This document shows, piece after piece, positions 1 through 36,049 of a stretch of DNA of 64,000 nucleotides. Position 1 is the stretch's first letter, and each line of letters opens with the position of its first letter. The notes under the pieces were generated by a model, which had not been told where the DNA came from, searched no databases, and saw nothing but the letters and a program-made list of their open reading frames with translations. This DNA is from an uncultured Bacteriovoracaceae bacterium (lineage in GTDB: Bacteria; Desulfobacterota; Desulfomonilia; UBA1062). The translations under genes were made by a program, and so were the position numbers. Where the stretch lies: the NCBI GenBank assembly GCA_964388905.1, contig CAYMDG010000001.1, forward strand, positions 7,686 through 71,685, written 5' to 3'.

Positions 1-684
1 ACCATCGATGTCGGGTATGATCCGAGTTATGTCACCTATAACGGCGCCACCTTTGTGCGGATCGGGCTCGGATCTCTCCAGGTCAGCCTGGACGCGCTGA
101 GCTTGAGGGTAGGCCTCGGCCCCGACACATCCCTTGCACAAGAGGTCGGAACGCTGAACCTCGGTCCCATGGCAGCGTACTTCAACCCTGCGAGCTATAT
201 TGATCTTTACAACCCGAGGATCGGGGTTACGAGCGCCGTGTATGTGACCATGAATGTCATTGTGGACCAGTTCGATCTGAGCTACCTGTCCTGGGGCGAC
301 AGCGACGGCCTGCCCGGCGGAAATACCGGGACCGGGGGCGTGGTGTGGATGGCCCCTGGCACCCTTTCGACAGCAGGCTACCTGGGTCTCCAGAACCTCA
401 CAATCGGCGGGCCCGTAACATTGACCGGGACCGTGAGCTTCGATGTCACCACAAGCAGAGGAGGCGTCTATGCCTCTGCAGGCGGAGGCCAGGTTACCGT
501 GTTCCACATTATTTTCCAGCGGCTGACCACCCTGAACTTCCATGGGCCCATCACGGCAAATGTACGGCTTGACAGCGTTGCGGCACTGAACAGCGCCAAC
601 GCCGGCACATTGGGGAATATCTACCTCTCGGGTGTCAACCTGGATGTGCGTGCCGGGAGCTGGATAGATATCTGGGCACATTAA
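1..684 (+). CDS. Secreted beta-rich repeat protein, 5'-truncated by the window edge. It is a paralog of 29414..30418.
   Basis: The reading frame is open from base 1 (TIDVGYDPSYVTYNGATFVRIGLG aligns to ITIDVGSSNAAGRTFVRFGLG of the 29414 gene). It shares WGD.DGLPGGNTGTGGVVWMA and the terminal GSWIDIWAH-stop with that paralog. The sequence is rich in G/T/N/S. Confidence 0.6.
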   Translation, partial: TIDVGYDPSYVTYNGATFVRIGLGSLQVSLDALSLRVGLGPDTSLAQEVGTLNLGPMAAYFNPASYIDLYNPRIGVTSAVYVTMNVIVDQFDLSYLSWGDSDGLPGGNTGTGGVVWMAPGTLSTAGYLGLQNLTIGGPVTLTGTVSFDVTTSRGGVYASAGGGQVTVFHIIFQRLTTLNFHGPITANVRLDSVAALNSANAGTLGNIYLSGVNLDVRAGSWIDIWAH

Positions 685-789
685 TTGCATTTGTATAATT
701 GATATAACAAATGGAAAAAGCTGGATATTGGGTGGCGGATGTTCTATATACAACTGAATAGGCAGTGAACTGAAAAGGTAGAGAACCGC

Positions 790-1677
790 ATGAAGAGATT
801 AGAGCAGATTCCTTTCATCGCGATAATCATATTGGCCGTCACAACACTTTCGCCCGGCATCCTTGCAGCCCAGATGAGCGTTGTCAGCGATGATGAGCTG
901 TCCTCTGTCTGCGCCCAGGCGGGCATCAATGCCAATTATGGTGATTTCGGGGTAAATATCACCACCGATTCCATTCGATTTTCCGACACCGACAACGGCA
1001 ACTGGATTGAAATGAATAACTTCTCCATCTCCGGCCCGGGGGGATATTTCAAGCTGGACTGCCCGGAAGATTCCCCCATGAGCATCGATGTGGGGACAAA
1101 GACCACCACCGACAACCTGACGAGGACCTTTATCGGTTACCAGCTGTCGGACCATATAAACACGCGAACCTGGTCAATCGGCAACTTTGTTTTCGCCAAC
1201 CAGGATCTTGGGAGTATCGTGTTTGATACCTCAACGGTGATCCCTGCCCATTTCGGCGTGTCAGCCCCCTTGGGGGCCGGTACCAGCGGAATAGAATTCG
1301 AATATCTCACCAGCTGGCTTACCCAGGATTTTACCTATGCCTACAACACAGCAGGAGGCGCCTTGAATTTACAGGGTATTCACCTTGCCCAGAGCGCTGC
1401 CGGTGCGCCTGAAAGCGACCCGTCCACGTGGGTGTTCAGCGGCCAGTTCCGGGTCGGCGATATACTCGGCGGGAATATCCATGCTGAACCGAGCCCTGCT
1501 ACCATGGATGTTGCCACAGAAATTTCAACTTCAACAACATCGTTATATGTCAACCTGCCCATGAAGGGCACGCTCAGGGTAGTGGATGTAGTACTCGGGG
1601 GAAATGATTTCGGCCCTGTTGCCATTGACGGCATCACGGTTCACCATCTCGGTTTGAGATTTAACCCGGGAAACTGA
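790..1677 (+). CDS. Secreted beta-rich protein, a distant member of the same family (signal peptide, then N-terminal D.ELS.V motif).
   Basis: ATG start with upstream AAGG. N-terminal hydrophobic signal (IPFIAIIILAVTTLSPGILAA). The mature N-terminus SVVSDDELSSVCAQAG resembles MTPVTDSDLSNVTGQSG of the paralogs. G/T/N-rich. It lies immediately upstream of the C39 peptidase gene. Confidence 0.5.
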   Translation: MKRLEQIPFIAIIILAVTTLSPGILAAQMSVVSDDELSSVCAQAGINANYGDFGVNITTDSIRFSDTDNGNWIEMNNFSISGPGGYFKLDCPEDSPMSIDVGTKTTTDNLTRTFIGYQLSDHINTRTWSIGNFVFANQDLGSIVFDTSTVIPAHFGVSAPLGAGTSGIEFEYLTSWLTQDFTYAYNTAGGALNLQGIHLAQSAAGAPESDPSTWVFSGQFRVGDILGGNIHAEPSPATMDVATEISTSTTSLYVNLPMKGTLRVVDVVLGGNDFGPVAIDGITVHHLGLRFNPGN

Positions 1678-1697
1678 GCCACTTCACTAATAACCCT

Positions 1698-2456
1698 ATG
1701 CCGATCATTGTCAGTTTCTTCATTCTCATGACATACATGGGGATCATGCACCCTCAGAGAGACATACCCAAGGGCGAGCTGAGAACAACACCTGGCATGG
1801 CAGGCATGCAGAATCTGACGCTCAGGAATAATGTCAAGCCGCTCAATGAAGGATTCACCTACAAGAATGTCGTAAAGCAGGAATTTGACTATAGTTGCGG
1901 ATCAGCGGCCCTGGCCACCCTCTTGAACTTTTACCTCGGTGAGAAATTAACCGAACAGCAGGTGATCCAGGGGCTCATGCAATACGGCGATGCGGACAAG
2001 ATACAGGAACGCAGGGCATTCTCCCTCCTGGACATGAAGCGTTTCGTTGAGGTGCTGGGGTATACGGGTGTCGGGTATAAGGCCGAACTTGATGACATCA
2101 GGTCTCTGAAAAAACCCGGGATTATCCCCATAGAATTGGCCGGTTACAAGCATTTTGTGGTATTCCGCGGAATTTACGGCAACCACATCTTTTTCGCAGA
2201 CCCGTTCAGGGGCAATACGAGCTTTACCCTTGAAACCTTCCGCGAAATCTGGAGCCAGAACATCGTATTCGTCATCTCAACGGAAAATGTTCACTTAAAG
2301 GCGCTCGCCTTGAAAGATGAAGACCTGCGCATCATTGACTTTGACATGACGCGGCATGCAATGACACAGACCCTCCCGCCCCAAATAGTGACGGATCAGC
2401 GTCAACTAACGGAATCCATAGGTGGAACGTATTATAAGACTGTAAATATAAAGTGA
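1698..2456 (+). CDS. Standalone papain-like C39-family cysteine peptidase (FapD-like architecture), probably periplasmic or membrane-anchored.
   Basis: Q-x5-C motif (VKQEFDYSCGSAALATLLNF) and a downstream catalytic His context (AGYKHFVVFRG). There is an N-terminal hydrophobic segment, and the size (~250 aa) is typical of Peptidase_C39-like domain proteins. Confidence 0.75.
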   Translation: MPIIVSFFILMTYMGIMHPQRDIPKGELRTTPGMAGMQNLTLRNNVKPLNEGFTYKNVVKQEFDYSCGSAALATLLNFYLGEKLTEQQVIQGLMQYGDADKIQERRAFSLLDMKRFVEVLGYTGVGYKAELDDIRSLKKPGIIPIELAGYKHFVVFRGIYGNHIFFADPFRGNTSFTLETFREIWSQNIVFVISTENVHLKALALKDEDLRIIDFDMTRHAMTQTLPPQIVTDQRQLTESIGGTYYKTVNIK

Positions 2457-2533
2457 CAATTGCACATGTTTTCATGTAAGGTTACATATATTGGCACTTA
2501 TTAACAATAGAGTATGCCGGGGGTAATTAAGCT

Positions 2534-3622
2534 GTGAAATTTTTTTGTATGGTTGGAATGGTTTTGTTGTTCTTGACCCTGTCGATCAGCACGCTGAATG
2601 CACAGGAGCAGGGAAATAAGGACAGTCAGGAATTGCTTGACAGGATAGAGACCCTGGAAAAGCAGCTGAAAAAACTTGAAGATGAAGGCAAGGCAAGGAA
2701 AAGCCTGGAGATAACGGAAGAAGAGAAAACTGACTCAGAGAAAGAAGTGCTCGAGGCCGTGGGCAGGGAATATTCCCTTTCACCGAAAGGCACTTTTTCC
2801 CTTGATTACAACCTGAGCTACGCCTATTCACCGGCCGAGACGTTCATCTCTCAATCACAAGCATCGCAATCGGCAACAACCCTGGAATTTCAGCGCCAGG
2901 CGGATCATACCATTACGCATTCCATATATACTTCGTACAGTATACTTGACAATCTCACCACAAGTGTGAACCTCCCCATCGTCTATCGGTACACAAAACA
3001 GGGCACCGACGATAGCCTTGACCAGTCGGATATCGGTGATATTTCCATAGGGCTTGCCGTGCAACCCCCGTCAGCCTGGTCCTGGCTTAAGCTTCCTCTC
3101 GGCATAAACGGCACGTACACTTTTGGTGGGGTGCTGCCAACGGGGCGCAGTCCGTTCAAGATCAACACCAAGACGGAGCTCTCCACAGGCAGCGGGTTAT
3201 ATCAGCTCTCGGCGGGTGGGAGTTTCAGCAAACAGATTGATCCGCTGGTATTCTTCTGGAGCCTTGGTTATTCCTATCCCTTCGACAAGAAAAATCTCAA
3301 CTACCGTGTACAGGATCAGATAACCCTGGATGAGGTGAAAACGGGTAGTTCGATTAACTTCGGTATGGGAATGGGGTATGCCATGTCCTATGCGAACTCC
3401 ATCAACATGTCTTTCAACTATTCATATCAGAAATCATCCAGCTACAAATATAATGAAGTAAAAAGCGTCCAGAAGAGTGGGGACCGCGTTTCAGCAACAT
3501 ATGGAATAGGCATGGGATTAATGGTGACACCGAAGACTGTTATCTCGGTATCGCTCGGATACAATCTCATAAGCGCCGGGTTCTCGCTGTCTGCACGGGT
3601 GCCATTTGATTTTGTTATGTGA
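2534..3622 (+). CDS. Outer-membrane beta-barrel protein with an N-terminal coiled coil (FapF-like organisation).
   Basis: Signal peptide (LFLTLSISTLNAQE), then a heptad-like charged segment (ELLDRIETLEKQLKKLEDEGKARKSLEITEEEK), then ~250 aa of alternating-hydrophobic beta strands rich in Y/S/G/N, and an aromatic C-terminus (VPFDFVM). Confidence 0.6.
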   Translation: MKFFCMVGMVLLFLTLSISTLNAQEQGNKDSQELLDRIETLEKQLKKLEDEGKARKSLEITEEEKTDSEKEVLEAVGREYSLSPKGTFSLDYNLSYAYSPAETFISQSQASQSATTLEFQRQADHTITHSIYTSYSILDNLTTSVNLPIVYRYTKQGTDDSLDQSDIGDISIGLAVQPPSAWSWLKLPLGINGTYTFGGVLPTGRSPFKINTKTELSTGSGLYQLSAGGSFSKQIDPLVFFWSLGYSYPFDKKNLNYRVQDQITLDEVKTGSSINFGMGMGYAMSYANSINMSFNYSYQKSSSYKYNEVKSVQKSGDRVSATYGIGMGLMVTPKTVISVSLGYNLISAGFSLSARVPFDFVM

Positions 3623-3634
3623 GGAGCTTATCGG

Positions 3635-5314
3635 ATGAAGAGGTTCAGTGTTATCTTCTTAATCTTAACGGTAGCGATTCCGGGGATCCCATCACTGCTA
3701 TCTGCTGCCCTGTATGAACAGCTTGTCACAAGCCCCCTTGCATCCTCCATGGGAAGTGCTGTTACGGCCTATCCGCCGGGGGCCATGGCCATACATTATA
3801 ACCCGGCAGGCCTTGCGACCATCCCTGGCACCCGTTTTGATAATGGCATCGGTTATGTTAACACCTTCAGGGAAGTTTCCTATCACCAGGCCATTGACCC
3901 AACAACGGGTAAACCCTGGGCACCCTTCGGCGGGTGGTTCAACCACGGGATAGACCCGCTTGACGGAATGAAAGGCAGGCAGTCGAGCGGGTTTACAATC
4001 ATCCCCTATATCGATTTAGAAATACCTTACCTCATTACCCCGGGAATGGGGATTTCATACAAACCACCCGACCCGAAATACTCCCGGTGGACCTTCGGTT
4101 TTGGTCAGTTCGCAACCTTTGGTGCGGGTCTGAAAAACTCAAAGGGCAATCCGATCAGTTATCTGGGTCAGAAGGCCTTTTTCATAAGGATGAGCTTTAT
4201 CACCCCTGCTATTGCCTATCAGCTCACCGACACCGTATCCATCGGGGCGGCAGTGGGGCTGGGGCCATCGGTATTCATGCTCGAGACGAACATGAGGACG
4301 CCCAATGATATGGGTGCGCTGACCGGGGCGCTCGGAGAGTCAACAAGGGGCCTCGAAATTCCTGTAGTCTCTGAGCTCACGTTACCCCCACCCTGGTTCA
4401 ATGGCGGGATGACAGCGTATGCAACCCATGGCCATGTCAAGATGATGATGGAAGACTACCTCACCACGTCCTATAACCTGGGCATGCTCTGGCAACCCTA
4501 TGACTGGTTTGCCTTCGGCGCCTGTTATCAGAGTGAGTCCGAGGCAAACATGGAAGGCAACTTCAAATTCACCTACGGATCTGAATTCCGCAGAACAGTT
4601 GACTGGTTCGGCAGATCACCCATGACCATTATTACCTCAGCGATCTTTGACCTGCCCAACAAATCAGTGCCTTTCCAGAAAGGGACAGCCACCATGGACT
4701 TGACATGGCCGGCCCGTGTCCAGCTTGGCGTCAAGCTGCGCCCTGTCAAGCAGCTGACAATGACCTGTGATGCGAACTGGACGGATTGGGCTGTGCAGAA
4801 GGCGTGGGTGTTTCAGTTCGACCAGAAGATCCAGCTCTTACGGTTTGCCCGTATGCTCGGATATAGGTATTCCCCTGATACGCAGGTTATTGTGCACAAT
4901 TTCAAGAACACCTGGCATATGACCTATGGGTTGGAGATCAGACCTGTTAACAAGTTTTATCTGCGCTTGGGGTATGATGCAAGGCCTACTTCTGTTCATA
5001 ACAATCTCTTCGGGCCGTTGCCTTTCCCGGACCTCAAGATTTACTCGGCTGGCATAGGGCTTGTGGTGGATGACAAGCCCAAGCCTTCACCAAAAAATTT
5101 CAAAGAGCTGCAAACGCAGATAGAGCACCCGAATGAAGTGAATATCGTTGTGTCCTATATAAAACTAAACGACAAGACAGTGAAGAGCAATTCAAGCGTA
5201 AACTACAATTCCACGGTATTCACCAATATCGTTTATAACCCTTACGCAGGGCTTGACGTGCACCAGGAGATGCACTTGTGGTGGTTTGCCATCAACCAGA
5301 TATTTAAATGGTAG
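3635..5314 (+). CDS. FadL/TodX-family outer-membrane channel (hydrophobic-compound transporter family).
   Basis: Signal peptide, and an N-terminal hatch-like motif with NPAGLA (GSAVTAYPPGAMAIHYNPAGLATIPG) characteristic of the FadL/Toluene_X family. Long beta-rich body ending in an aromatic residue (..IFKW). Confidence 0.7.
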   Translation: MKRFSVIFLILTVAIPGIPSLLSAALYEQLVTSPLASSMGSAVTAYPPGAMAIHYNPAGLATIPGTRFDNGIGYVNTFREVSYHQAIDPTTGKPWAPFGGWFNHGIDPLDGMKGRQSSGFTIIPYIDLEIPYLITPGMGISYKPPDPKYSRWTFGFGQFATFGAGLKNSKGNPISYLGQKAFFIRMSFITPAIAYQLTDTVSIGAAVGLGPSVFMLETNMRTPNDMGALTGALGESTRGLEIPVVSELTLPPPWFNGGMTAYATHGHVKMMMEDYLTTSYNLGMLWQPYDWFAFGACYQSESEANMEGNFKFTYGSEFRRTVDWFGRSPMTIITSAIFDLPNKSVPFQKGTATMDLTWPARVQLGVKLRPVKQLTMTCDANWTDWAVQKAWVFQFDQKIQLLRFARMLGYRYSPDTQVIVHNFKNTWHMTYGLEIRPVNKFYLRLGYDARPTSVHNNLFGPLPFPDLKIYSAGIGLVVDDKPKPSPKNFKELQTQIEHPNEVNIVVSYIKLNDKTVKSNSSVNYNSTVFTNIVYNPYAGLDVHQEMHLWWFAINQIFKW

Positions 5315-5510
5315 ATTCTTTCGATAGAACGAGGGTATGACAGGTCTTGTGGTATGATAAGAAGTGATTCATAAGCATATCCGTGCCGATATCAAAAGTG
5401 CAAAAGACATCAGTAAGCCGGGTTGTTGCATTCCTCAGTAAAAGTTTGTATATCTCACATCGGTTTCAATGAAGATCATTATAGAATCAATAAAAAGGAG
5501 AGAATCAGGA

Positions 5511-7019
5511 ATGAAAAGACATGTGTGTTATCTGACGTTGGTTCTCGTTGTTTGCACCCTTATGTCAAGCTCGGTTGTATGTGCAGAGAACAAGACACTC
5601 AAAGAAAAGATAGACATCATAGCCGAACCATCAAAGGACTGGGATATATACCTGGAGTCTGCCACACCAAGCCCTGACTCCAATCATGTGACTACCGTTG
5701 CGCGCAACAAGGCCGGTAAGTTTTGCGTTGTGTACGATGGAAAACCCCTTAAGGAATACAGTTCAATCGGCAAGGGCACCCCGGTCTTCAGCCCTGATTC
5801 GAAGCATTTTGTCTATAAGGCAAAAAAGGGCAATAAATGGCTGATGGTCTTGGACTCCAATGAGCAGAAGGCTTACGACAATGTGGGCAACCCGGTTTTC
5901 AGCCCTGACTCGAAAAGACTTGCCTATATAGCTGAAAAAGGCGGGAAATATACGGTTGTCCTGGACGGGAAAGAGATCGGTGAATATGATCTTGTCCCTT
6001 CGAAATACAACCTGATCTTCAGCGGCGACTCAAAACGCTTTGTTTTTCTCGCGCTGAAAGGCAAGAAAGGACTCATGGTTGTCGACGGTGTGGACGGGAA
6101 GATCTATGACCAGGTATCATATGCCGTCTTCAGCCCGGACTCGAAACACCTCATTTATCCGGCAACGAATAATAAGAAAATGTTTGTAGTATACGATGGA
6201 AAGGAATTGACTGCTTATGAAAAGGTCGGGGCATTTGCCTTCAGCCCCGACTCATCGCGGTTCGCCTATACCGCCAAACTCAACGACAAGGCGTTACTGG
6301 TCTCGGACGGGAAGGAAAGCCCGCGATACTCCGATATCGCCATGCCCATGTACAGCCCTGATTCAAAGACCATAGGCTATTTCGCCATAGATGGTAAGAA
6401 GACCTATATGGTCATGAACGGCAACAAGGGGAATTCCTATGACGAGGTCAGGGAGTTGCTTTTCAGCCCTGACTCTTCACGCTATACCATATCCTATCGT
6501 GATGGCAGCGACTGGTTCGCCCTCGATGAAAAGGGGAAGATAAGCGCCAAATATGACAATGTCTTCATGCCGGTCTACAGTCCGGACTCGAAGCATGTGG
6601 CCTACATGGCGCAGAAAGGGAAAAACTGGTTTATAGTACGTGATGGAAAAGAAGGTCCAAAATATGATTTTATCACCCTAGCCCAGTTCAGCAAGGACTC
6701 GAGCCGCATGGTCTATATGGCGAAGAAAGGGGAAAAGTGGCTGGTGGTCATGGATGGTAATGAATCGAAAATCTATGATGGCGTTGCCCTTCCCAAGTTC
6801 AGTGATGATTCGCGTCACTATTCATACATTGCATTAAAAGACAGTTTATGGTTCGCTGTGGTCGATGAGATTGAAAGCAAAAATAAGTTTCTCGGTTTTC
6901 TCAAGGGATCGGATGTATCATTTGATACAAATACCAGCACGCATGTCCTTGGGCTTCACGTGCCCACGGGATCAACATTACCAAACATCGTAAAATTGAA
7001 GATCGATATTGCAAACTGA
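5511..7019 (+). CDS. Secreted protein built from ~11 tandem ~40-aa WG/PD40-like beta-propeller-type repeats.
   Basis: AAGGAG RBS at 5495..5500, ATG at 5511. Signal peptide (LVLVVCTLMSSSVVCA). Recurring unit G.KW.VV.DGKE...YD.V....FSPDSK.LAY.A.K. The upstream in-frame extension in the ORF track lacks an RBS. Confidence 0.65.
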   Translation: MKRHVCYLTLVLVVCTLMSSSVVCAENKTLKEKIDIIAEPSKDWDIYLESATPSPDSNHVTTVARNKAGKFCVVYDGKPLKEYSSIGKGTPVFSPDSKHFVYKAKKGNKWLMVLDSNEQKAYDNVGNPVFSPDSKRLAYIAEKGGKYTVVLDGKEIGEYDLVPSKYNLIFSGDSKRFVFLALKGKKGLMVVDGVDGKIYDQVSYAVFSPDSKHLIYPATNNKKMFVVYDGKELTAYEKVGAFAFSPDSSRFAYTAKLNDKALLVSDGKESPRYSDIAMPMYSPDSKTIGYFAIDGKKTYMVMNGNKGNSYDEVRELLFSPDSSRYTISYRDGSDWFALDEKGKISAKYDNVFMPVYSPDSKHVAYMAQKGKNWFIVRDGKEGPKYDFITLAQFSKDSSRMVYMAKKGEKWLVVMDGNESKIYDGVALPKFSDDSRHYSYIALKDSLWFAVVDEIESKNKFLGFLKGSDVSFDTNTSTHVLGLHVPTGSTLPNIVKLKIDIAN

Positions 7020-24923: not shown

Positions 24924-27104
24924 ATGAAAATAAATCTATCTCATCGAAAATCGGTCGTCGGGTGGATGCTTCCGCTTGCATCCATACTCTTCCTTGCCGT
25001 TGTGTTCATCCGTTACGCAGAGCCCGTGAAGGACGGTGATATCTGGTTCCACATGGCCTATGGCCGGTACATGCTGGAGAACCACACCCTCGTTCCCGAT
25101 CATGCCATCTACAGCTGGACCCCGGCGGTGAACAGCCAGATCTATTGCGCCTGGTTGCCGGAGATCATTCTTTATCTTCTCTATACCGCAGGCGGGGTGA
25201 GTGCATTCTTTGTTCTCAGGTATGCGTGCATCCTCGTGTTCCTGGGGTTTGCCCTGCATTTCATGAAAAGAAACAATGCATCCCTCAATCCTCTGGCCTG
25301 GTTGACCACCCTGACCGGGGTGCTGATGTGTCAAGCTGCAATGGATATAAAGCCCGAGATCTTTTCCTTTATCTTCATGACAGGAACGGTATGGGCATGG
25401 CTCATGGTGAGGTCCTCGCGGGAAAGTGGATGGAGGTATTGCTACCTTATCCCGCTGATCATGCTTCTGTGGGTGAACAGCCACGGTGGTTTCATATTCG
25501 GCCTGGTCTTTCTTGCGCTGGTTTCAGCGGGAGAAATAGTGAACTGCTCCTTCTCCCCGGAGGAAAGGCTCGATGCAAGGACGCTGCGGCATTTTTTCTT
25601 CTCGATGCTGCTGAGTTTCATCGTGATATTCATCACACCCTACGGGTGGGAATACCCGGCGCAGCTCTTTCATGACCTCCTCCTCAACAGCCAGGCCCAG
25701 GTGAGAGAATTCAGGACCGTCGGTGCGTACCAGTCGATTTTCCACCCTGAGGCAAAGGGGCATCATTTCATTGATTATCTCGTAGTCTCAGGCTCGGCTC
25801 TGGTTTTTCTGTTCTGGTCAGCCATGAAGAAGAAAAGACTGAACTGGTCGCTGATTTTTGCGAATACGGGGATGATATGGCTATACACCCAGTTCATACG
25901 GACCACCTATTTCTGGGGAGTGCTCAGTGTTTTCAGCTCGCTGGCCATCATGGGCCAGGCCGGCATAAGCCTCAGGATGAAAGAGGGGAAGATTCAGAAA
26001 TACCTGGGAATATTTTTCATCATGCTGTGCATGTTCATTTCCGGAAGAGAAGTTTATCAGTCCTTGTGCAAACCGCTTTCCGGGTTCTGGATAAACTACT
26101 ACAGTCCCATTGAGGAAGCCGAGTATATCCGCACCAGGCTGCCGGGATACCGGCTGGGCAATGATTATAACTGCGGGACATATCTGCTCTGGAAGCTGTG
26201 GCCAGAACAGAAGGTCTTCATCGATGCGCGGTATTTTCCCTATAAGAAGTGGTATCATGAGTATGCAAACTTTGTGTACGGCAAGGACCGTCGATACAAA
26301 GATGACTTCCTCGCCAGGTATGGGTGTGATGTCTGGTGTGCCACCTATGATTTTCCCCAGCTTACCTATTTTGTCAAATCCCCGGACTGGCGCCTGGTGC
26401 ATTACGGGCCTTCGGCCTGCATCTTTGTAAGGAATGGGCTGGATGTTCCCCGGGACGGGAAAGGCCTCTTTAAGTCACCCGCCAAGGTAAGAACCCACCA
26501 GGCCCTGAAGATAATCGATTTTTCAATATCTGTGGGGGATCTTGACAATGCGGTATCCCTGGCAGGGGGTCTCAAGAAAAGCCTTATCTGCCCGGGGCTC
26601 AATAAGCAGATCGCCCTGTCATGCATCAAACTCGGTGATGCCCTGAGCAGGAAAAACCGGACCGATGAGTCGATTGCGTTTTTCGAACAGGCCTTAGAGG
26701 TTTTTCCCCTACGCGAAGCAGGTGTTCATAACACCCTTGGCAGCCTGTACCGCAATAAGGGCGAACTTGACAAGGCTTTACAGGAGTACGGGAATGCCTT
26801 GCAGATTCAGCCTGATTACGTGCCGGCTCTGCATAACATGGGGGTTGTTTACTCCCAGAAGGGAGACCTTGACCGTGCCCTGACATACCTGAAGAAGCTC
26901 TCTGAGATCCATCCGGAAAATCCGGACAACTACTATAACATCTCCTGTATATATGCCAGGCAGCGGAAAACAGGCGAATCAGTAGCCTGGCTCGATAGGG
27001 CGGTTAAGAAAGGCTTTCAAAACTGGAAGCTGCTCAAGACTGATCCTGATCTTGATAATATCCGGGGATCCGGGTACTACCAGGGGCTTGTTCAGGGGAA
27101 ATAA
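24924..27104 (+). CDS. Polytopic membrane protein (GT-C/ArnT-like or O-antigen-ligase-like) with C-terminal TPR and cap.
   Basis: ~12 TM helices. Acidic first-loop motif (VKDGDIWFHMAYGRYM) and a WVNSHGGFIFG element. C-terminal TPRs end in YYNISCIYARQRKTGESVAWLDRAVKKGFQNWKLLKTDPDLDNIR. Confidence 0.55.
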   Translation: MKINLSHRKSVVGWMLPLASILFLAVVFIRYAEPVKDGDIWFHMAYGRYMLENHTLVPDHAIYSWTPAVNSQIYCAWLPEIILYLLYTAGGVSAFFVLRYACILVFLGFALHFMKRNNASLNPLAWLTTLTGVLMCQAAMDIKPEIFSFIFMTGTVWAWLMVRSSRESGWRYCYLIPLIMLLWVNSHGGFIFGLVFLALVSAGEIVNCSFSPEERLDARTLRHFFFSMLLSFIVIFITPYGWEYPAQLFHDLLLNSQAQVREFRTVGAYQSIFHPEAKGHHFIDYLVVSGSALVFLFWSAMKKKRLNWSLIFANTGMIWLYTQFIRTTYFWGVLSVFSSLAIMGQAGISLRMKEGKIQKYLGIFFIMLCMFISGREVYQSLCKPLSGFWINYYSPIEEAEYIRTRLPGYRLGNDYNCGTYLLWKLWPEQKVFIDARYFPYKKWYHEYANFVYGKDRRYKDDFLARYGCDVWCATYDFPQLTYFVKSPDWRLVHYGPSACIFVRNGLDVPRDGKGLFKSPAKVRTHQALKIIDFSISVGDLDNAVSLAGGLKKSLICPGLNKQIALSCIKLGDALSRKNRTDESIAFFEQALEVFPLREAGVHNTLGSLYRNKGELDKALQEYGNALQIQPDYVPALHNMGVVYSQKGDLDRALTYLKKLSEIHPENPDNYYNISCIYARQRKTGESVAWLDRAVKKGFQNWKLLKTDPDLDNIRGSGYYQGLVQGK

Positions 27105-29413: not shown

Positions 29414-30418
29414 TTAGTGAGCCCAGATGTCTATCCAGCTTCCGCTGCCGATATCAAGGTTAAACCCTGAGATGAAGATATCCCCGAGCGTTCCGGCATT
29501 GGGACCGGCCAGAGTGTGAAGGTCGGAAAGCCTCACATTTGCCGTGATCGGACCCGCTACATTTACATTGAACAGGTTCGGGAAGGAGATGTGGCATATC
29601 GTCAGAGAGGGTGCCCCATGGTTGTAGACCCCTGCCAGCTGGTTGGCAACGTCGATTGCAACGGTGCCGGTGATGGAGATCGGGCCGCCGATTGAAAGGT
29701 TCTGGAGACCGATGTAACCCCGCGTGCTGTTCGTCCCGCCTGCCATCCAGACAACCCCGCCGGTTCCCGTGTTTCCACCGGGCAGGCCGTCAACGTCACC
29801 CCATGCGATGTAGCTCAAATTGAACTGGTCAATGATGATGTTCAAGTCCATCGACACGCCGCTGCCGCCATGGGAGTAGATATCAACATAGCTGTCGGGA
29901 TTAAAGTATATACCCATTGCGCCGATGACAACTGTCCCGAGTAGCTGGTTGATGGTATAGGTCGGTCCCATGGCAACCCCGATAGCTATTTGATTCATGG
30001 TGATCTGAAGGGCGCCGAGCCCGAAGCGCACGAAGGTGCGGCCGGCTGCATTGGAGCTGCCAACATCGATGGTGATGGGCTTCAGGTAAGCAGTTCCGTA
30101 AGAGCCTGAATAGACCGTGCCGTAACCGACGCCGTAATGATCGGTTTCACGGGCCTTGATCCTGAGGTTGGTGATGTCGAACCATCTGACTCCGACATAT
30201 CCTCTGCCGTTGATGCCGGCGGTGGGCCAATATGCATTTACGCCGTCTGCGTCACCCCAGGCCAAGGTTCCGATGCCGATGTTCATCGTCAGGTCGGCAT
30301 TGATGCTCACGCCGGACTGGCCGGTGACATTCGACAGGTCGGAATCAGTGACCGGGGTCATGGCCCAGACGGAAAGGGGTAATAATAGTATTACCAGAAT
30401 AGTAACAACTCTCTTCAT
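29414..30418 (-). CDS. Secreted beta-rich repeat protein, full-length paralog of the window-start gene.
   Basis: Start re-set to the MKRVVTILVILLLPLSVWA signal peptide (RBS AAGGAG upstream). Mature N-terminus MTPVTDSDLSNVTGQSG. Internal duplicated AWGD.DG segments. C-terminus GSWIDIWAH identical to gene 1. Confidence 0.6.
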   Translation of the reverse strand: MKRVVTILVILLLPLSVWAMTPVTDSDLSNVTGQSGVSINADLTMNIGIGTLAWGDADGVNAYWPTAGINGRGYVGVRWFDITNLRIKARETDHYGVGYGTVYSGSYGTAYLKPITIDVGSSNAAGRTFVRFGLGALQITMNQIAIGVAMGPTYTINQLLGTVVIGAMGIYFNPDSYVDIYSHGGSGVSMDLNIIIDQFNLSYIAWGDVDGLPGGNTGTGGVVWMAGGTNSTRGYIGLQNLSIGGPISITGTVAIDVANQLAGVYNHGAPSLTICHISFPNLFNVNVAGPITANVRLSDLHTLAGPNAGTLGDIFISGFNLDIGSGSWIDIWAH

Positions 30419-30879: not shown

Positions 30880-32301
30880 ATGCTTTTTAATTACTGGTTC
30901 ATCTTTGTTGTGATTCTGGCCCTTCCGGTCTACTACTCCCTTTCGCGGATATGGCAGAACGCATTTCTGATTGCTGCGAGCTATGCCTTCTACAGCTACT
31001 GGGACTACCGGTTCCTCTCCCTCATCGTCATATCGACGGTGTTCAATTTCTATTTCGGCTCGAAGATCCATGCATCCCGGAACCCGGCGACGAAAAGGAC
31101 ATGGTTACTCATCAGCCTGGTTCTCAACCTGGGCATCCTGGGATTCTTCAAATACTACAACTTCTTCATAACCTCATTTACTGCCGCGTTCCAGCCCTTT
31201 GGATTCGTGCCCCAGGCAAGCATATTGAAAATCATATTACCCCTGGGGATCAGTTTCTTTACGTTCAAGATCATGGGCTACCTCATCGATGTTTACCGGG
31301 ACAGGCAGACGCCCGCTGACATTGTTTCCTTCGCTTTGTTCGTGGGCTATTTCCCCGAGATATCGGCAGGGCCCATAGGAAGGGCCGGCACCTTTCTGCC
31401 CCAGATAGACAAGAAACGGACCTTTGCACAGGAACGGATATTTGCCGGCCTGCAGCTCATCCTGCTCGGCTATTTCAAGAAGAAGGTGATAGCGGACGCG
31501 GTGGCGCCCTATGTGGACCAGTTGTTCACGGAGACAGGGCAATTCATGAGCCTCGATCTCCTGTGCGGGATGTACCTTTACACCATCCAGATCTATGCGG
31601 ACTTTTCGGGCTACACGGACTTAGTAAGGGGCATCAGCAAGCTGCTGGGCATAGAGATCATGGAGAATTTCAAGCAGCCATACCTCTCGCGGAACATCGC
31701 CGAATTCTGGAGGAGATGGCACATCTCCCTGTCCACCTGGCTCAGGGACTACCTCTACATACCCCTGGGAGGCAGCCGCAGGGGCAATGCCCGGACATAC
31801 GCGAACATCATGGTCACCATGCTCCTGTGCGGCCTCTGGCACGGGGCCTCATGGGTGTTCGTGGCCTGGGGAGGCTTGCACGGGGTTTACATCGTGGTCA
31901 ACCGGTTTTTCAGGGACGGCGTGAAGAAGACTGCCTCAGCCAGGGAAGAAGGGCAGGGCATTATAAGGTCCGCAGTGTCGGTTTTCATAACGTTCCATGT
32001 GGTCGCCCTGGCCTGGATATTTTTCCGGGCACCTGATTTCAGCACGGCATGGACATACATCTCTTCCCTGGCGGATATGTCGCGTTTCGGGTATGTGTCG
32101 TCCTCGCTCATACTGATTACGCTCTTTTATGTGGTCCTGACCCTGGTAATTGATCTCCCCATGTACAGATCGAACAGGGAACTGCTCGTAACACATGAAA
32201 CCCCATGGCCCTGGCGGGCAGTGGTGTATGCCCTGCTCATCCTGTGCATCTCATTCCTGGGCGAAGCGTATGTCCAGCCGTTCATCTACTTCCAGTTCTG
32301 A
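30880..32301 (+). CDS. MBOAT-family membrane O-acyltransferase (AlgI/DltB-like).
   Basis: Canonical MBOAT core WHISLSTWLRDYLYIPLGGSRRG...LLCGLWHGASWVFVAWGGLHG, ~470 aa, multi-TM. Confidence 0.85.
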   Translation: MLFNYWFIFVVILALPVYYSLSRIWQNAFLIAASYAFYSYWDYRFLSLIVISTVFNFYFGSKIHASRNPATKRTWLLISLVLNLGILGFFKYYNFFITSFTAAFQPFGFVPQASILKIILPLGISFFTFKIMGYLIDVYRDRQTPADIVSFALFVGYFPEISAGPIGRAGTFLPQIDKKRTFAQERIFAGLQLILLGYFKKKVIADAVAPYVDQLFTETGQFMSLDLLCGMYLYTIQIYADFSGYTDLVRGISKLLGIEIMENFKQPYLSRNIAEFWRRWHISLSTWLRDYLYIPLGGSRRGNARTYANIMVTMLLCGLWHGASWVFVAWGGLHGVYIVVNRFFRDGVKKTASAREEGQGIIRSAVSVFITFHVVALAWIFFRAPDFSTAWTYISSLADMSRFGYVSSSLILITLFYVVLTLVIDLPMYRSNRELLVTHETPWPWRAVVYALLILCISFLGEAYVQPFIYFQF

Positions 32302-32314
32302 TACGGGCAAACAC

Positions 32315-33814
32315 ATGAGCCAATCCTTCAAAGTCATGATCTTAACTCTTTTCATCCTGGCCTGTGCCGGTGGCGCCCTTTCCTTGAGCCGGGATGTATT
32401 GGAGAAGATATCTCCAAGATCTTTTATGACACCTGTCTTCTCATATCTTGAAACAAAGAAACCGAATGATTTACAGGCTGTTTTCCTGGGGAGTTCTCGT
32501 ATTCAATCCTGTATCAAAAGGGATCTCTTTGCCACGTTGACAGGTATTGAGCAGTCGAAGATCCTTCTCCTCGAAGTTGATGGTTCCGGCACCTGGGAAG
32601 AATTCTCTATCTGCAGGAGATTTCCAGGTTTGCTTGACTCTGCACCTCTGGTCATTATCGAGGTAGAACCTTGGATGTTCAACAATAATTATTTCTCCCA
32701 GGGAGGCACTCTCTTCATTCAACCGGGCTTTTACCAATGGGCTACTATTCAGGATAGACTTGAGTTCCCGGACCTGAAGATCAGGGCTCTCTCAACCGTA
32801 GATTATATCTGGCCCATTTCCGAGCGACGTTCTCTTCAGGGATGGAGCAGCGTCATTGATGGATTCATTCATAAAAGATATCCAGAACCGATGAACCCGG
32901 ACGATATCCCCAAATACCACTACGATGCAGCTGCATACAGGAAGGTTGCGGAAGAACCGAAAGGCACGGCCCAGTTTCAAGCACACGCCGCTCTGAATAA
33001 TTTCGAATTTTCCAGTTATAAAGCGGAATATCTTGAGCGCCTTGTGCGTCTGGCAGAAAAAAAATCAAAGAAGATAGTACTCCTGCAGCCTCCATTGCAA
33101 AATGAGTATATCGACATAATGTTTGATAACCCGAAGTATCTCGAAGGGCACATACGGGTAATTAAGTTTTTGCACAGCCTTGAGAACAAGAATGTCAGCA
33201 CCATAATATGGGAGAGGCCTGAAGACTGCGGCCTGAACGACGCCGTGTTCATTGATTATGGGCATTTCAACAGGGAAGGGGCGTATATGTTTACGCAAAG
33301 GCTGTACAATGAGCTGAACAGCCGGGGCCTTACCGAAACCCATGACCCTGTTGGAACGTCATCCGATACCGAACTTAAGGGGAATATCCTGAAGCTTGAG
33401 AAATTTGTACAGGTGCATCCTGGGGATTACGATGCGCTCCACCAACTGGGGAACCTGTATTACCGGATAAACATTGACAAGGCCCTTGATTACTATCAGG
33501 CGGCATTGCTGATACGTCCGGAATCGATGAAGACCATGGAAAAAATAGTCATGTTGTACTCAAAAAAAGGTGATTATGAAATATCGCTTGCTGTTCTTAA
33601 CCGTATGCAAGCATTGCACCCGGAAAACGCGAACACCTACTACAATATCGCATGTATAAAGGCAAAGCAGAACAGGCACAGTGAGTCTGTCGAATGGTTG
33701 AAGAAGGCAGTATCGAAAGGATTTCATGACCGAAGTCTTTTAGTGACTGATAAAGATCTGGATAATATTAAAGGGGATCCGGGGTATATTGGCCTGTTGA
33801 AGAGCTCCAATTGA
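32315..33814 (+). CDS. Membrane-anchored SGNH-like (AlgJ/AlgX/DltD-type) partner protein fused to the C-terminal TPR cap.
   Basis: Start re-set to the ATG 11 nt after the MBOAT stop (MSQSFKVMILTLFILACAG); the track's longer N-extension is an out-of-frame read of the MBOAT tail. Motifs AVFLGSSR (GDS-like) and FIDYGHFN (DxxH). Cap YYNIACIKAKQNRHSESVEWLKKAVSKGF. Confidence 0.55.
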   Translation: MSQSFKVMILTLFILACAGGALSLSRDVLEKISPRSFMTPVFSYLETKKPNDLQAVFLGSSRIQSCIKRDLFATLTGIEQSKILLLEVDGSGTWEEFSICRRFPGLLDSAPLVIIEVEPWMFNNNYFSQGGTLFIQPGFYQWATIQDRLEFPDLKIRALSTVDYIWPISERRSLQGWSSVIDGFIHKRYPEPMNPDDIPKYHYDAAAYRKVAEEPKGTAQFQAHAALNNFEFSSYKAEYLERLVRLAEKKSKKIVLLQPPLQNEYIDIMFDNPKYLEGHIRVIKFLHSLENKNVSTIIWERPEDCGLNDAVFIDYGHFNREGAYMFTQRLYNELNSRGLTETHDPVGTSSDTELKGNILKLEKFVQVHPGDYDALHQLGNLYYRINIDKALDYYQAALLIRPESMKTMEKIVMLYSKKGDYEISLAVLNRMQALHPENANTYYNIACIKAKQNRHSESVEWLKKAVSKGFHDRSLLVTDKDLDNIKGDPGYIGLLKSSN

Positions 33815-33880: not shown

Positions 33881-33970
33881 ATGAAAAATATCAAGTATGC
33901 CGTGCTCTTCCTGTGCATCTCGTTCCTGGGTGAAACGTATGTCAAGCCATTCATCTACTTACAGTTCTGA
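33881..33970 (+). pseudogene. Duplicated remnant of the MBOAT gene 3' end, marking a tandem-duplication junction.
   Basis: tatgccgtgctcttcctgtgcatctcgttcctgggtgaaacgtatgtcaagccattcatctacttacagttctga differs at only ~9 positions from the last 75 nt of 30880..32301. Encodes ..YAVLFLCISFLGETYVKPFIYLQF*. Confidence 0.65.
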
Positions 33971-33974
33971 CGCC

Positions 33975-35384
33975 ATGAAGAATATGCCCGAGTCTTTAAA
34001 AGTTGCTCTGGTCACCTGTGCGATACTAATTATTATATGTATTCCGCTGTCCATCAATCGGGAGCCGTTGGAGAAGGTCACACAGCGGTCGAACCTGACA
34101 ATGATCTTTTCCTTTCTCGACCGTTATAAACCTCATGATCTGAAAGCGATATTCTTTGGAAGTTCCCGTTTTGTTTACTGCATTAAAAGCGATATTTTTG
34201 CTAGGCAGATGGGGATAGATCAGTCGAAAGTGATCAATCTCGCCACCGAGGGCGGAGGAGCCTGGGAAGAGTTGCTTGTCTGCAGAAAATACCCCGGATT
34301 GATCAACTCGTCTTCCCTGGTCGTCATCGAGGTGGAGCCATGGATGTTCAACATGAATCCGATTCACCCTATCTATAAAAGACCTCATCCTTTCGAGTCT
34401 CATTTTTATATGTGGGCAACTCTTCAGGAACGGTGGGAGTACCCGGACTTGAAAACAAGGGTTCTCCTTCTGGCAGATTACGTATGGCCCTTTTCCGAGC
34501 GCCGTTCTCTCATGGACTGGGGTTCTGCTCTTCGTTTAATCATCAAAGCGCCCTATGCAGATCCGCACCTAAGTCTCCCGGTATATCAGTTCGATCCCCA
34601 AGCTTATCAGGCAATGGCGAACGACCCTAACTTTACAGCAGGTCAGATTACCCGCTATCAACTGAATGATTTCAAATTTGCCCCATACAAGGCCGAGTAT
34701 TTCAAGCGCCTGATCAAACTTGCTGAGAAGAACGCAAAGAAGATAGTCCTCCTGCAGCCACCGGTTCGCAAGGAATATATCGAAGCAATCTATAATAACC
34801 CCAAGTATTTCAATACCTATATACAGTATGTGCAGTTCATCCACGGCCTGGAAAATGAAAAGATCAGTTCTATAATCTGGCAGACACCTGAAGACTGCGG
34901 ATTGAACGAGTCCATATTCATTGATTATGGCCACTTCAACGCACAGGGAGCACATGTCTTTACGCAAAGATTATCTCAGGAACTGAAAGCTTCAGGGTTT
35001 GCAGGAACAGATACAGCCGGCGGTACAGGGCCGGCAAGTAATGGACAAGATGATATACGCAGGTTCGTAGAGGCACTGAAAACCAACCCGGACTCAATAA
35101 CTGTCATGCAGTCGTTGGCGATAGCCTACTCGAATAATGGAGATTATGAAAACGCACTCAGGGTGCTTAATAAAATGAGAGAAATCCACCCGAATAAAGC
35201 GGACATTTACTATAATATCTCGTGCATAAAGGCAAAGCAGGGCAGTTTGAAAGAGTCTGTTGAATGGTTGAGGCTGGCTCTTTCAAAAGGTTTCAAAAAC
35301 CGCAGCCTCCTGGTGACGGATAAAGACCTGGACGCCATTAAAGGTACTCAGGGGTTCAGGGAGATAGTGCAGAAAATGAATTAG
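33975..35384 (+). CDS. Second SGNH-like partner paralog with TPR cap (tandem duplicate of 32315..33814).
   Basis: Start set at MKNMPESLKVALVTCAILIIICIP, downstream of the MBOAT-tail remnant. It has the same FFGSSR, FIDYGHFN and cap motifs (YYNISCIKAKQGSLKESVEWLRLALSKGF). Confidence 0.55.
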   Translation: MKNMPESLKVALVTCAILIIICIPLSINREPLEKVTQRSNLTMIFSFLDRYKPHDLKAIFFGSSRFVYCIKSDIFARQMGIDQSKVINLATEGGGAWEELLVCRKYPGLINSSSLVVIEVEPWMFNMNPIHPIYKRPHPFESHFYMWATLQERWEYPDLKTRVLLLADYVWPFSERRSLMDWGSALRLIIKAPYADPHLSLPVYQFDPQAYQAMANDPNFTAGQITRYQLNDFKFAPYKAEYFKRLIKLAEKNAKKIVLLQPPVRKEYIEAIYNNPKYFNTYIQYVQFIHGLENEKISSIIWQTPEDCGLNESIFIDYGHFNAQGAHVFTQRLSQELKASGFAGTDTAGGTGPASNGQDDIRRFVEALKTNPDSITVMQSLAIAYSNNGDYENALRVLNKMREIHPNKADIYYNISCIKAKQGSLKESVEWLRLALSKGFKNRSLLVTDKDLDAIKGTQGFREIVQKMN

Positions 35385-36049
35385 CGGGTCTTTATGTCCA
35401 CCCAGCTGTTCGGACGGATGGTAGAGTTCGTATCATTGGTGTAATAAGTGCGAAGCAGGGTGTTCCCGTCAGGTTTGACATGGACGATGACAGGGGAATT
35501 TGAACTGGTCGAGAGGCCGGTCGGATAGACAAAGCTGCGCGTCGGTTTATCACTGATAGTGTATTGGTTGTGATCGTCAGCAGAGGAGCCAATTGTATAG
35601 GCGTCTTTCAGGGTGATCGGATCGATCAGGAAGTTTTTGATGCTTTTATCATCATTTCTATTACCTGAAGACACATAGAAGAATGAGAACCGGTTAAAGG
35701 CTTCGGATTCTTCCGCTGCCTCAACGGCACTATCAGGGAGCTGAAGGCGGGCTTTGCTCCAACGTTTGATGGCGAACAGCAGGAACCTGCTCATGTCGCC
35801 ATCATCCCAATCCATGGTTTCATTGTTGATATCTGTTACCTGCACGGGATTGATGCTCAGGCTGAGAGGGTTGTTGACATTGCCAAGGTCTAAATCCGTC
35901 AGGGGCGTCATGGCCCACACTGACAGAGGGAACAGCAGCCAGATCCAGAAAATAATAATCTTCTTCAACAACACGTCTGTCCTCATCATGGGATATTGCA
36001 TACAATACACACTTTTATGTGTTGAAAATATAAGCAATATAAATGCCAT
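35381..36049 (-). CDS. Short secreted protein of the same family (shares the N-terminal LSVWAMTPLTDLDLGNV motif).
   Basis: Signal peptide IIIFWIWLLFPLSVWA followed by MTPLTDLDLGNVNNP. C-terminus ..SWVDIKTR resembles SWIDIWAH. The exact start Met is ambiguous (MQYPMM). Confidence 0.5.
   Translation of the reverse strand: MAFILLIFSTHKSVYCMQYPMMRTDVLLKKIIIFWIWLLFPLSVWAMTPLTDLDLGNVNNPLSLSINPVQVTDINNETMDWDDGDMSRFLLFAIKRWSKARLQLPDSAVEAAEESEAFNRFSFFYVSSGNRNDDKSIKNFLIDPITLKDAYTIGSSADDHNQYTISDKPTRSFVYPTGLSTSSNSPVIVHVKPDGNTLLRTYYTNDTNSTIRPNSWVDIKTR

Follow-up and report, generated by a model that had tools for sequence, protein, structure and literature searches.

A family of secreted proteins with conserved termini and a Fil/Fap-like operon in a Desulfomonilia-lineage bacterium: candidate subunits of an extracellular fibre

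What might be made from secreted proteins that share their ends and differ in their bodies? The question is raised by a 64,000-nucleotide stretch of contig CAYMDG010000001.1 (the window) from an uncultured Bacteriovoracaceae bacterium placed by GTDB in the Desulfomonilia. An initial annotation had described four genes of the window as a dispersed paralog family, and had likened their products to donor-strand, pilin-like or amyloid subunits that polymerise head to tail. The present analysis centers on one of them, the gene at 29414..30418, and on the operon at the start of the window that carries its relatives. With moderate confidence, the family is read here as secreted subunits from which an extracellular fibre is built. 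The pathway would be of the Fil/Fap type, a Desulfomonilia-lineage system distantly related to filABCD of Acinetobacter and fap of Pseudomonas. The support for this reading comes from homology and gene context.

The secreted paralog family is real. Its four open reading frames (ORFs) exist at 1..684, 790..1677, 29414..30418 and 35381..36049 (the last two on the minus strand), but they are not equivalent copies and fall into three protein classes, called A-type, C-type and D-type here (Table 1). The A-type product of 29414..30418 is 62% identical over 341 amino acids (aa) to the full-length form of the 1..684 product (E 6e-142, BLASTP). The N-terminus of the latter falls outside the window and the shared N-terminal string is not visible there; in the full-length form (P0004, 350 aa, carrying PF19657) it reads PLSLWA followed by MTPVSDTDLSTVTGQ. 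In pairwise BLASTP, A-type matched C-type at 24% over 147 aa (E 2e-6) and D-type within its first 58 aa only (E 2.6e-13), and C-type and D-type gave no match to each other. When profiles were compared with hhalign, C-type aligned to A-type across C residues 18-191 (Prob 98.7, E 1.7e-16), and D-type aligned to A-type over its N-terminal 63 aa (Prob 98.8, E 8.8e-17) and again over its C-terminal 24 aa (E 7.9e-5).

The shared features are spread unevenly over the classes. A signal peptide ending in ..LSVWA followed by MTP(V/L)TD.DL.NV had been attributed to all four genes. It was found in the 29414..30418 product (LLLPLSVWA followed by MTPVTDSDLSNVTGQ) and in the D-type product (LLFPLSVWA followed by MTPLTDLDLGNVNNP), which is without the TGQ that ends the string, and C-type has a divergent version only (ILAAQMSVVSDDELSSVCAQAG). 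The C-terminal GSWIDIWAH/SWVDIKTR is carried by three of the four genes; the product of 790..1677 terminates ..LRFNPGN. The duplicated (A/S)WGD.DG segments stood for the two A-type copies, but C-type and D-type are without this duplication. The D-type protein has the signal peptide, leader, first strand and C-terminal strand (NSWVDIKTR) of A-type around a smaller, unrelated body. C-type has two modules and, in place of the SW(V/I)DI C-terminus, a conserved end of its own (..GPVAIDGITVHHL..NPGN).

The shared termini of the family are not due to chance, because they are conserved across homologues. Both A-type termini hardly vary among more than 120 A-type homologues, and both D-type termini are conserved in the D-type homologues (n = 16), which bears out the initial annotation on this point. 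Among 71 aligned A-type homologues, the mean top-residue frequency was 0.86 in the leader and 0.99 in the last 8 residues, compared to 0.67 overall. More than 318 full-length homologues were collected for A-type and 50 for C-type, the latter always encoded between A-type and FilB. A search of 1.84 billion cluster representatives gave 492 clusters at E <= 1e-3.

The 29414..30418 product is composed of a Sec signal peptide, a 15-aa leader and two beta modules of ~150 aa. Its gene starts with the ATG at 30418, 7 nucleotides behind an AAGGAG ribosome-binding site, and ends with a stop codon at 29414-29416. Cleavage by signal peptidase I is predicted after VWA, and the signal peptide pattern is conserved among homologues. 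The two halves of the protein are homologous (residues 36-82 versus 187-243, Prob 95.9, E 5.7e-9, profile-profile hhalign), with AWGDADG at residues 53-59 and AWGDVDG at residues 205-211. The C-terminal I..GSW(V/I)DIWAH aligns to the internal (Y)FNPDSYVDIYSH at residues 172-183 (E 2e-5). This internal module end, SYVDIYSH, is followed directly by GGSGVSMDLN.., the counterpart of the N-terminal GQSGVSINADL... The 'LPGGNTGTGGVVW' loop occurs once per protein. Relatives were found with two (median 347 aa), three (~612 aa) or four (~727 aa) modules; the start and end motifs recur in every module, and the C-terminus reads ..GWVDIAAH. Since two, three or four modules are joined by a common junction motif, modules can be added in series. 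The relatives with three or four modules (P0214, P0220, P0228, P0230 and P0243) lie outside the window, and some relatives of this size carry an Ala-rich insertion of ~115 residues within module 1, predicted helical at low confidence.

Two other interpretations of the ends were set aside. The leader as a degenerate module-end strand was unsupported, the half-vs-half profile alignment beginning only at GVS... A second proposal, by which C-type would end right in front of the module-end strand ('..RFNPGN' vs '..YFNPDS' followed by YVDIYSH), was dropped for want of hhalign support.

To what known proteins is this family related? The database searches gave no match to a characterised enzyme or to a domain family of monomeric function; they gave DUF6160 (PF19657) and FilA. 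DUF6160 was matched by 29414..30418 at 44.6 bits and by 790..1677 at 39.1 bits (gathering threshold 27), and the D-type ORF at 35381..36001 had no Pfam match at E <= 0.1. The D-type motif peptide gave no match, either. A 29-aa peptide from aa 20, the predicted signal-peptidase site, reaches 34.6 bits for DUF6160 alone, and DUF6160 is thus essentially this N-terminal motif. The sole NCBIfam subunit match is weak and N-terminal, to pilus_FilA ('putative pilus system protein FilA', NF050077; E 3.7e-10). It places residues 11-149 on model positions 12-133 of 279, with a score of 39.7 bits and a cut-off of 220. Judged by these alignments, the A-type protein is a distant relative of FilA and not a FilA orthologue. 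A search of the PDB with the A-type sequence returned no match. FilA is the subunit of an abundant thin, curved surface filament of Acinetobacter 'of unknown functions' (PMC10980823, PMC11539960); for strain Tol 5 it appears in a listing as subunit of the Fil pilus (PMC11784438).

The connection to Fil extends to the genes directly downstream of the operon's subunit genes. Their best NCBIfam matches are, in order, pilus_FilB (3e-63), pilus_FilC (1e-48) and pilus_FilD (9e-77), and subunit, C39 peptidase, FapF-like and FadL-like genes are located together in the Fil order. Further matches are FapD for 1698..2456 (6e-33; 114 bits, cut-off 330) and FapF for 2534..3622 (3e-16; 59 bits, equivalog cut-off 700), both weaker than the Fil matches. 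Residues 82-359 of the FilC-like protein align to FapF crystal structures (E 1e-8), and a charged heptad-like N-terminal segment stands at the place of the FapF trimeric coiled coil. No Fap subunit family was among the Pfam or NCBIfam matches of the four subunit proteins, and no chaperone or usher family was among the matches of the operon or neighbouring ORFs.

The Fil system of Acinetobacter (NF050077-NF050080) thus has in common with the window the DUF6160 motif directly after the signal peptide of the subunit, and the same gene order of subunit(s), C39 peptidase, FapF-like barrel and FadL-like barrel. It differs in that only about the first 130 FilA model positions align to A-type, and in that the subunit here is built of tandem 150-aa modules with a fixed SW(V/I)DIWAH end. 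Leader-bearing cargo comes in three to four classes here, a PD40 protein is present in addition, no FilE or FilF match was seen, and the hosts are uncultured anaerobic Desulfomonilia-type bacteria. The system is a distant, uncharacterised variant of the Fil/Fap kind and not a new type of system. As far as homology can tell, the four Fil core components are present, and the differences are the subunit that shares only its N-terminal part with FilA, the further cargo classes and the PD40 protein.

A similar operon was found in related genomes by a scan of one genome per species, with ORFs classified by profiles built in this analysis. The general order is a small leader protein, one or two A-type genes, C-type, FilB, FilC, FilD and PD40. 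It is kept in about 15 loci, all from metagenome-assembled genomes (MAGs) of uncultured 'Deltaproteobacteria'/Desulfomonilia of Thermodesulfobacteriota type. In one such locus, L001 from a Desulfomonilia MAG, a 213-aa leader protein is followed by two A-type genes, C-type, C39 peptidase, FapF-like, FadL-like and a ~500-aa PD40 protein, and then by an LPG_synthase_TM gene and a GDP-mannose dehydratase gene. The PD40 gene follows FilD in 13 related loci (L001 and 12 from the genome scan). Extra orphan A-type copies are found elsewhere in the same MAG genomes, often near an LPG_synthase_TM gene, and in one locus a D-type copy stands beside them. The window matches this layout, with the operon at 1..7019, the orphan A-type copy at 29414, and the D-type copy at 35381 adjoining the LPG_synthase_TM gene at 36217.

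Several side observations can be made on these genes. The LPG_synthase_TM-family membrane protein of the window (36217-37314, minus strand) recurs near the operon end or near orphan A- or D-type copies in L001, L012, L014, L019 and L025. In the window about 29 kb (7100-36200) separate it from the operon, vs adjacent positions in L001 (17139-21056). Glycan genes, the orphan A-type copy and the D-type copy lie in between. The small cargo class of ~213 aa (9083-9724 in L001, and the first gene in 14 other loci within L004-L026) combines a signal peptide with a related leader (..WMWEVGDEALAEITGEG..) and a C-terminus that is fixed (..GWWFxWxNATITP), and it is always the first operon gene; its equivalent would fall upstream of the window start. 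Two PD40-repeat paralogues are encoded in the window, at 5469-7019 and 9474-10811 (both on the plus strand), and match NCBIfam TmcD_fam at ~1e-40, far below the cut-off. Only 5469-7019 belongs to the conserved operon.

How could such different cargo be handled by one pathway? The A-type leader has the consensus MTPVSDxDLSxVTGQ, is 15 residues long and begins exactly at the predicted signal-peptidase site. Counted from the Q of ..VTGQ, it has Met at -15, Val at -12, Ser or Thr at -11, Asp or Glu at -8, Leu at -7, Val at -4 and Gly at -2. The consensus of double-glycine leaders is LSxxELxxIxGG. By inspection, the spacing of the A-, C- and D-type leaders fits this consensus, with no leader hidden Markov model (HMM) match behind the fit. 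The 15-residue leader has hydrophobic residues at -15, -12, -7 and -4, Ser or Thr at -11, an acid at -8 and Gly or Ala at -2. The spacing is kept in the C-type (..ELSxVxAQ) and D-type (..DLSNVSNP) leaders. In the leader of the small upstream protein (..ALAEITGE), Gly at -2 and the hydrophobic positions are retained, but the acid at -8 is missing.

The FilB-like peptidase aligns to LahT150 (6MPZ) and PCAT1 with the oxyanion Gln and the catalytic Cys, His and Asp conserved (QEFDYSCG for Q..eCG, KHFVV for nHFVV, ADP for nDP). The systems of this kind used for comparison also include ComA and Neisseria NapP/NapF. Because the catalytic residues are intact and an N-terminal hydrophobic anchor is present, the protein is expected to be an active periplasmic protease. 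It differs from the proteases of double-glycine leaders in being a separate periplasmic protein with no ABC exporter attached; the leader here stands behind a Sec signal peptide and not at the extreme N-terminus, and what is carried is a beta protein of 30-70 kDa in place of a peptide. A C39 peptidase paired with a FapF-like channel has been described beside double-glycine peptides in the Nap island of Neisseria (PMC11798529). In the Fap pathway, secretion of FapC needs the catalytic Cys of FapD, and five more phyla have fapD-fapF pairs (PMC6173800). The leader may be a tag that is read by shared machinery, the strongest argument being that it is common to four cargo classes with different bodies; the FilB-like peptidase would recognise it and may cleave it. 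The initial annotation had suggested a processing or recognition site for the adjacent C39 peptidase. Leader spacing and intact catalytic residues speak for this suggestion, but the peptidase adjoins only the copies in 1..1677 and not the one at 29414.

A route can be proposed from these parts. The subunit would cross the inner membrane via Sec and, going by the sequence pattern, lose its signal peptide after ..VWA. The next 15 residues would serve as a system-specific leader for the periplasmic FilB-like C39 peptidase, which would either cut near GQ or hold the subunit for export; this step is proposed because of the leader spacing, the intact catalytic residues and the tag common to four cargo classes. 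FilC, the FapF-like channel, would be the exit, and the FadL-like FilD and the PD40 protein would assist, as proposed from homology and conserved gene order. Outside the cell, subunits would join end to end, the C-terminal module-end strand of one meeting the first hairpin of the next. Since the C-terminal SWIDIWAH repeats the internal end SYVDIYSH, and GQSGVS.. stands just behind the leader, the joint between subunits is proposed to copy the joint between modules. C-type (with leader, without end strand) and D-type (with both termini and another body) may, more speculatively, be minor, cap or adaptor subunits. The pilus- or amyloid-like character first suggested for the family therefore finds backing in the DUF6160/FilA motif and in the FilB/FapD-, FilC/FapF- and FilD-like neighbours, while head-to-tail polymerisation is something that we infer.

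Terminal strands are also used elsewhere in fibre assembly. In the type V pili of Bacteroidia (FimA/Mfa1), a protease removes an N-terminal segment and the next subunit's conserved C-terminal strand completes the fold; the pilins of type V are lipoproteins, and gingipain-type proteases process them. The likeness is one of working principle only, with no sequence or fold relationship to the present family, for which strand exchange is a proposal. In chaperone-usher pilins, too, the terminal strands are conserved and the bodies variable, and their terminator-like subunit without one terminus has a possible parallel here. However, there is no Ig-like pilin domain, and export through a FapF-like pore is predicted. 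No chaperone or usher is encoded in the operon or the neighbouring ORFs, by which chaperone-usher donor-strand pilins are excluded as the family. A further generalisation would be that DUF6160/Fil-type fibres form a distinct pilus assembly class. In such a class, a double-glycine-like propeptide after the Sec signal would be read or removed by a free periplasmic C39 protease, licensing export through a FapF-type pore; the module-end strand would dock on the next unmasked first hairpin, C-type would set polarity or cap, and D-type would be spliced in as an adaptor. This generalisation is rather unlikely, and it is offered tentatively.

What can structure prediction add? The AlphaFold2 model of A-type is all-beta (predicted local distance difference test, pLDDT, 88; predicted template modelling score, pTM, 0.79), and the model of the four-module P0214 reached pLDDT 76 and pTM 0.71. 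The models contain hairpins of 15-27 residues and a well-ordered module junction. Leader residues 20-34 lie outside the core, with a low-confidence short helix at 25-30, and C-terminal motif residues 327-332 are predicted as a strand. Foldseek against the PDB gave best E-values of 0.26 (two-module model) and 0.33 (four-module model) with TM-scores <= 0.15, and no fold was assignable. Covariation was computed as mutual information with average product correction (MI-APC) on 177 two-module sequences (effective number of sequences, Neff, 89). The pair H276-D330 was ranked 5, and the end strand is therefore probably packed within its own module. The pair N40-D330, which joins the N- and C-terminus, was ranked 33 of 54,285 pairs. 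An A41/W332 size-compensation pattern was rejected, with a rank of only 1387 and confounding by phylogeny.

A number of these results weigh against a fibre assembled in this way. Strong pairs between the termini such as N40-D330 could be explained by clade effects or intramolecular contacts; internal cross-module pairs mapped onto the termini score at background (mean 0.005 vs -0.002, standard deviation 0.05); and the fold may be closed, with first and last strands paired inside one molecule. No pilin-like or amyloid-like structure was among the Foldseek matches. For the leader, position -1 is Gln, Glu, Arg or Pro and never Gly, Ala or Ser, and the -2/-1 pair, GQ in A-type, AQ in C-type and GE in the small protein, is NP in D-type. 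Leader peptides searched against Pfam and NCBIfam (E <= 10) matched DUF6160 and FilA only, and no bacteriocin or double-glycine leader family; with no match to a double-glycine leader HMM, the resemblance rests on inspection. The Fil scores are far below their cut-offs for FilB (213.7/475), FilC (166.6/630) and FilD (258.6/970) as for FilA (39.7/220), and since the Fap scores are likewise far below theirs, the system is orthologous to neither. The relatives are all from uncultured MAGs, and fibre, cleavage and secretion are predictions from genes.

Could the family be a functional amyloid of the Fap kind? In this case the subunits would be secreted unfolded via the FapF-like pore, and an insoluble cross-beta fibre would form by templated stacking of imperfect repeats, as for CsgA and FapC. 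The Fap system of Pseudomonas (FapA-F) shares with the window, by homology below the model cut-offs, a periplasmic C39 peptidase (FapD) and a coiled-coil outer-membrane barrel (FapF; match to 5O65/5O67, E 1e-8), and has Sec-dependent cargo, major and minor subunit paralogues and stacking, repeat-built beta subunits (PMC6173800, PMC12392863). The machinery is indeed FapD- and FapF-like, the proteins are all-beta with imperfect tandem repeats, the stacking of imperfect repeats being what builds FapC fibrils (PMC12392863), and C-type resembles a nucleator-like second subunit class such as FapB or CsgB. However, the repeats are ~150 aa with predicted hairpins of 15-27 residues, about five times longer than in Fap, and not strand-turn-strand units of ~20-40 aa. 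Fap subunit models found no match: FapB, FapC and FapE show no similarity, and FapA is absent here; an additional FadL-like barrel is present, and the FapF PTG motif is STG in the FilC-like protein. All four machinery genes score higher on Fil than on Fap models, and the best subunit match is FilA, of a thin curved pilus (PMC11539960). A Fap-like amyloid is improbable.

About equally improbable is that the proteins are exported by the FilB/C/D route and do not polymerise. The termini would then be export, sorting or folding signals, and the proteins monomeric adhesins, sheath or matrix components, or binders of hydrophobic ligands. A leader common to four cargo classes with unrelated bodies is what would be expected of a secretion tag, but the C-terminal motif is the module-end motif of a serial repeat and not a separate tag, and the number of modules varies from 2 to 4. 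The cargo of the C39/FapF pair in the Neisseria Nap island consists of peptides and not of fibres (PMC11798529), FapF and FadL relatives handle hydrophobic substrates (PMC6173800), and the top, non-significant Foldseek matches were long lipid-binding beta-sheets. The covariation gives no support to an inter-subunit interface, either. Against this stand the homologous FilA, which is a filament subunit, and the several major-type paralogues per genome, which are typical of structural fibres.

That the A-type proteins are themselves outer-membrane beta-barrels, their aromatic-rich C-terminus a signal for the beta-barrel assembly machinery (BAM beta-signal) and their first and last strands closing the barrel, is very improbable: the all-beta prediction, the alternating W-x-D-I-W of the C-terminal strand, porins among the non-significant Foldseek matches and covarying N-/C-terminus pairs such as N40-D330, which would suit a closing seam, are outweighed by a last residue of His (Arg in D-type) in place of Phe or Trp, strands that reach 27 residues and are too long for a membrane barrel, an end motif that is also internal, closure that is hard to square with 2, 3 or 4 modules, Foldseek TM-scores to barrels of 0.1-0.2 and in no case above 0.25, and two dedicated barrels already in the operon.

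The reading of the family as Fil/Fap-type fibre subunits is of interest beyond this genome. The Fil pilus is abundant on Acinetobacter surfaces, yet it is 'a pilus of unknown functions', and no structure, assembly model or assembly mechanism for Fil, nor a study of DUF6160, was found in the searchable literature. The question extends to the part that the C39 peptidase plays in the related Fap amyloid pathway. The present family is informative in having nearly invariant termini, countable modules (2 to 4) and at least four cargo classes under one leader, and it makes testable predictions: a peptidase site after ..VTGQ, eight assembly-driving residues and a fibre-capping paralogue. If these are true, the assembly logic of C39/FapF-type fibre systems would be defined across Proteobacteria and Desulfobacterota; if not, the system would be an ordinary distant member of an already named one.

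Table 1. Features of the subunit family and its operon in the window, with coordinates, strand and basis of assignment.
Feature	Position	Strand	Basis or remark
Second A-type gene, 3' part (aa 124-350), first subunit gene of the operon in the window	1..684	+	translation contained in P0004
C-type subunit gene, 295 aa	790..1677	+	DUF6160 39.1 bits
FilB/FapD-like C39 cysteine peptidase, N-terminal hydrophobic anchor	1698..2456	+	Pfam Peptidase_C39 1.2e-15
FilC/FapF-like outer-membrane beta-barrel, N-terminal coiled-coil-like segment	2534..3622	+	PDB FapF 5O67, NCBIfam
FilD-like FadL/OmpP1-family outer-membrane protein	3635..5314	+	Pfam Toluene_X 4e-34
PD40 (TolB-like) repeat protein, conserved last operon gene	5469..7019	+	Pfam PD40
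A-type subunit gene, orphan copy, 334 aa	29414..30418	-	ORF, ribosome-binding site, DUF6160
Signal peptide codons, aa 1-19, MKRVVTILVILLLPLSVWA	30362..30418	-	basic n-region, hydrophobic core, V-x-A pattern
Leader / DUF6160 core motif, aa 20-34, MTPVTDSDLSNVTGQ	30317..30361	-	proposed FilB-like C39 peptidase recognition or cleavage site
Module 1, aa 35-183, SGVSINADL..AWGDADG to ..FNPDSYVDIYSH	29870..30316	-	half-vs-half hhalign
Module 2, aa 184-334, GGSGVSMDL..AWGDVDG to ..GSGSWIDIWAH	29417..29869	-	half-vs-half hhalign, end motif
C-terminal motif SWIDIWAH, aa 327-334, module-end strand	29417..29440	-	0.99 top-residue frequency, 71 homologues
D-type gene, 206 aa counted from MQYPMM; ORF start possible at 36049	35381..36001	-	terminal homology to A-type

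The remainder of the window holds further genes of note. Nine paralogous proteins of 730-860 aa are encoded at 7125-9374 (minus), 18453-20822 (minus), 22250-24823 (plus), 24924-27104 (plus), 41681-43897 (plus), 44000-46228 (plus), 50111-52387 (plus), 56322-58568 (plus) and 59200-61410 (minus). They have a polytopic membrane N-terminal domain, with weak PMT_2/GT-C matches in two of them, and a C-terminal TPR array. Interspersed with them are GT2 transferases, a Wzx-like flippase, an MBOAT O-acyltransferase, sugar-nucleotide enzymes and a DegT aminotransferase. The region could be a glycan or protein-glycosylation island, possibly one acting on the fibre. A 221-aa secreted protein encoded at 10943-11608 (minus) has a PEP-CTERM-like sorting signal at its end (..VPIPPAIIMLGSGILGLLGFRSRMRSE) and a weak floc_PepA match (E 0.045); this end suggests that an exosortase system is present in the genome.

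Lastly, a direct repeat of 109 nucleotides (79% identical) was found at 32226-32334 and 33895-34003. Its copies mark the 5' ends of two TPR-protein genes that are tandem paralogues (32195-33814 and 33897-35384), and the first copy also runs into the 3' end of the MBOAT gene. The long N-termini of the ORFs (MPCSSCAS..) are probably spurious translations of this duplicated segment.

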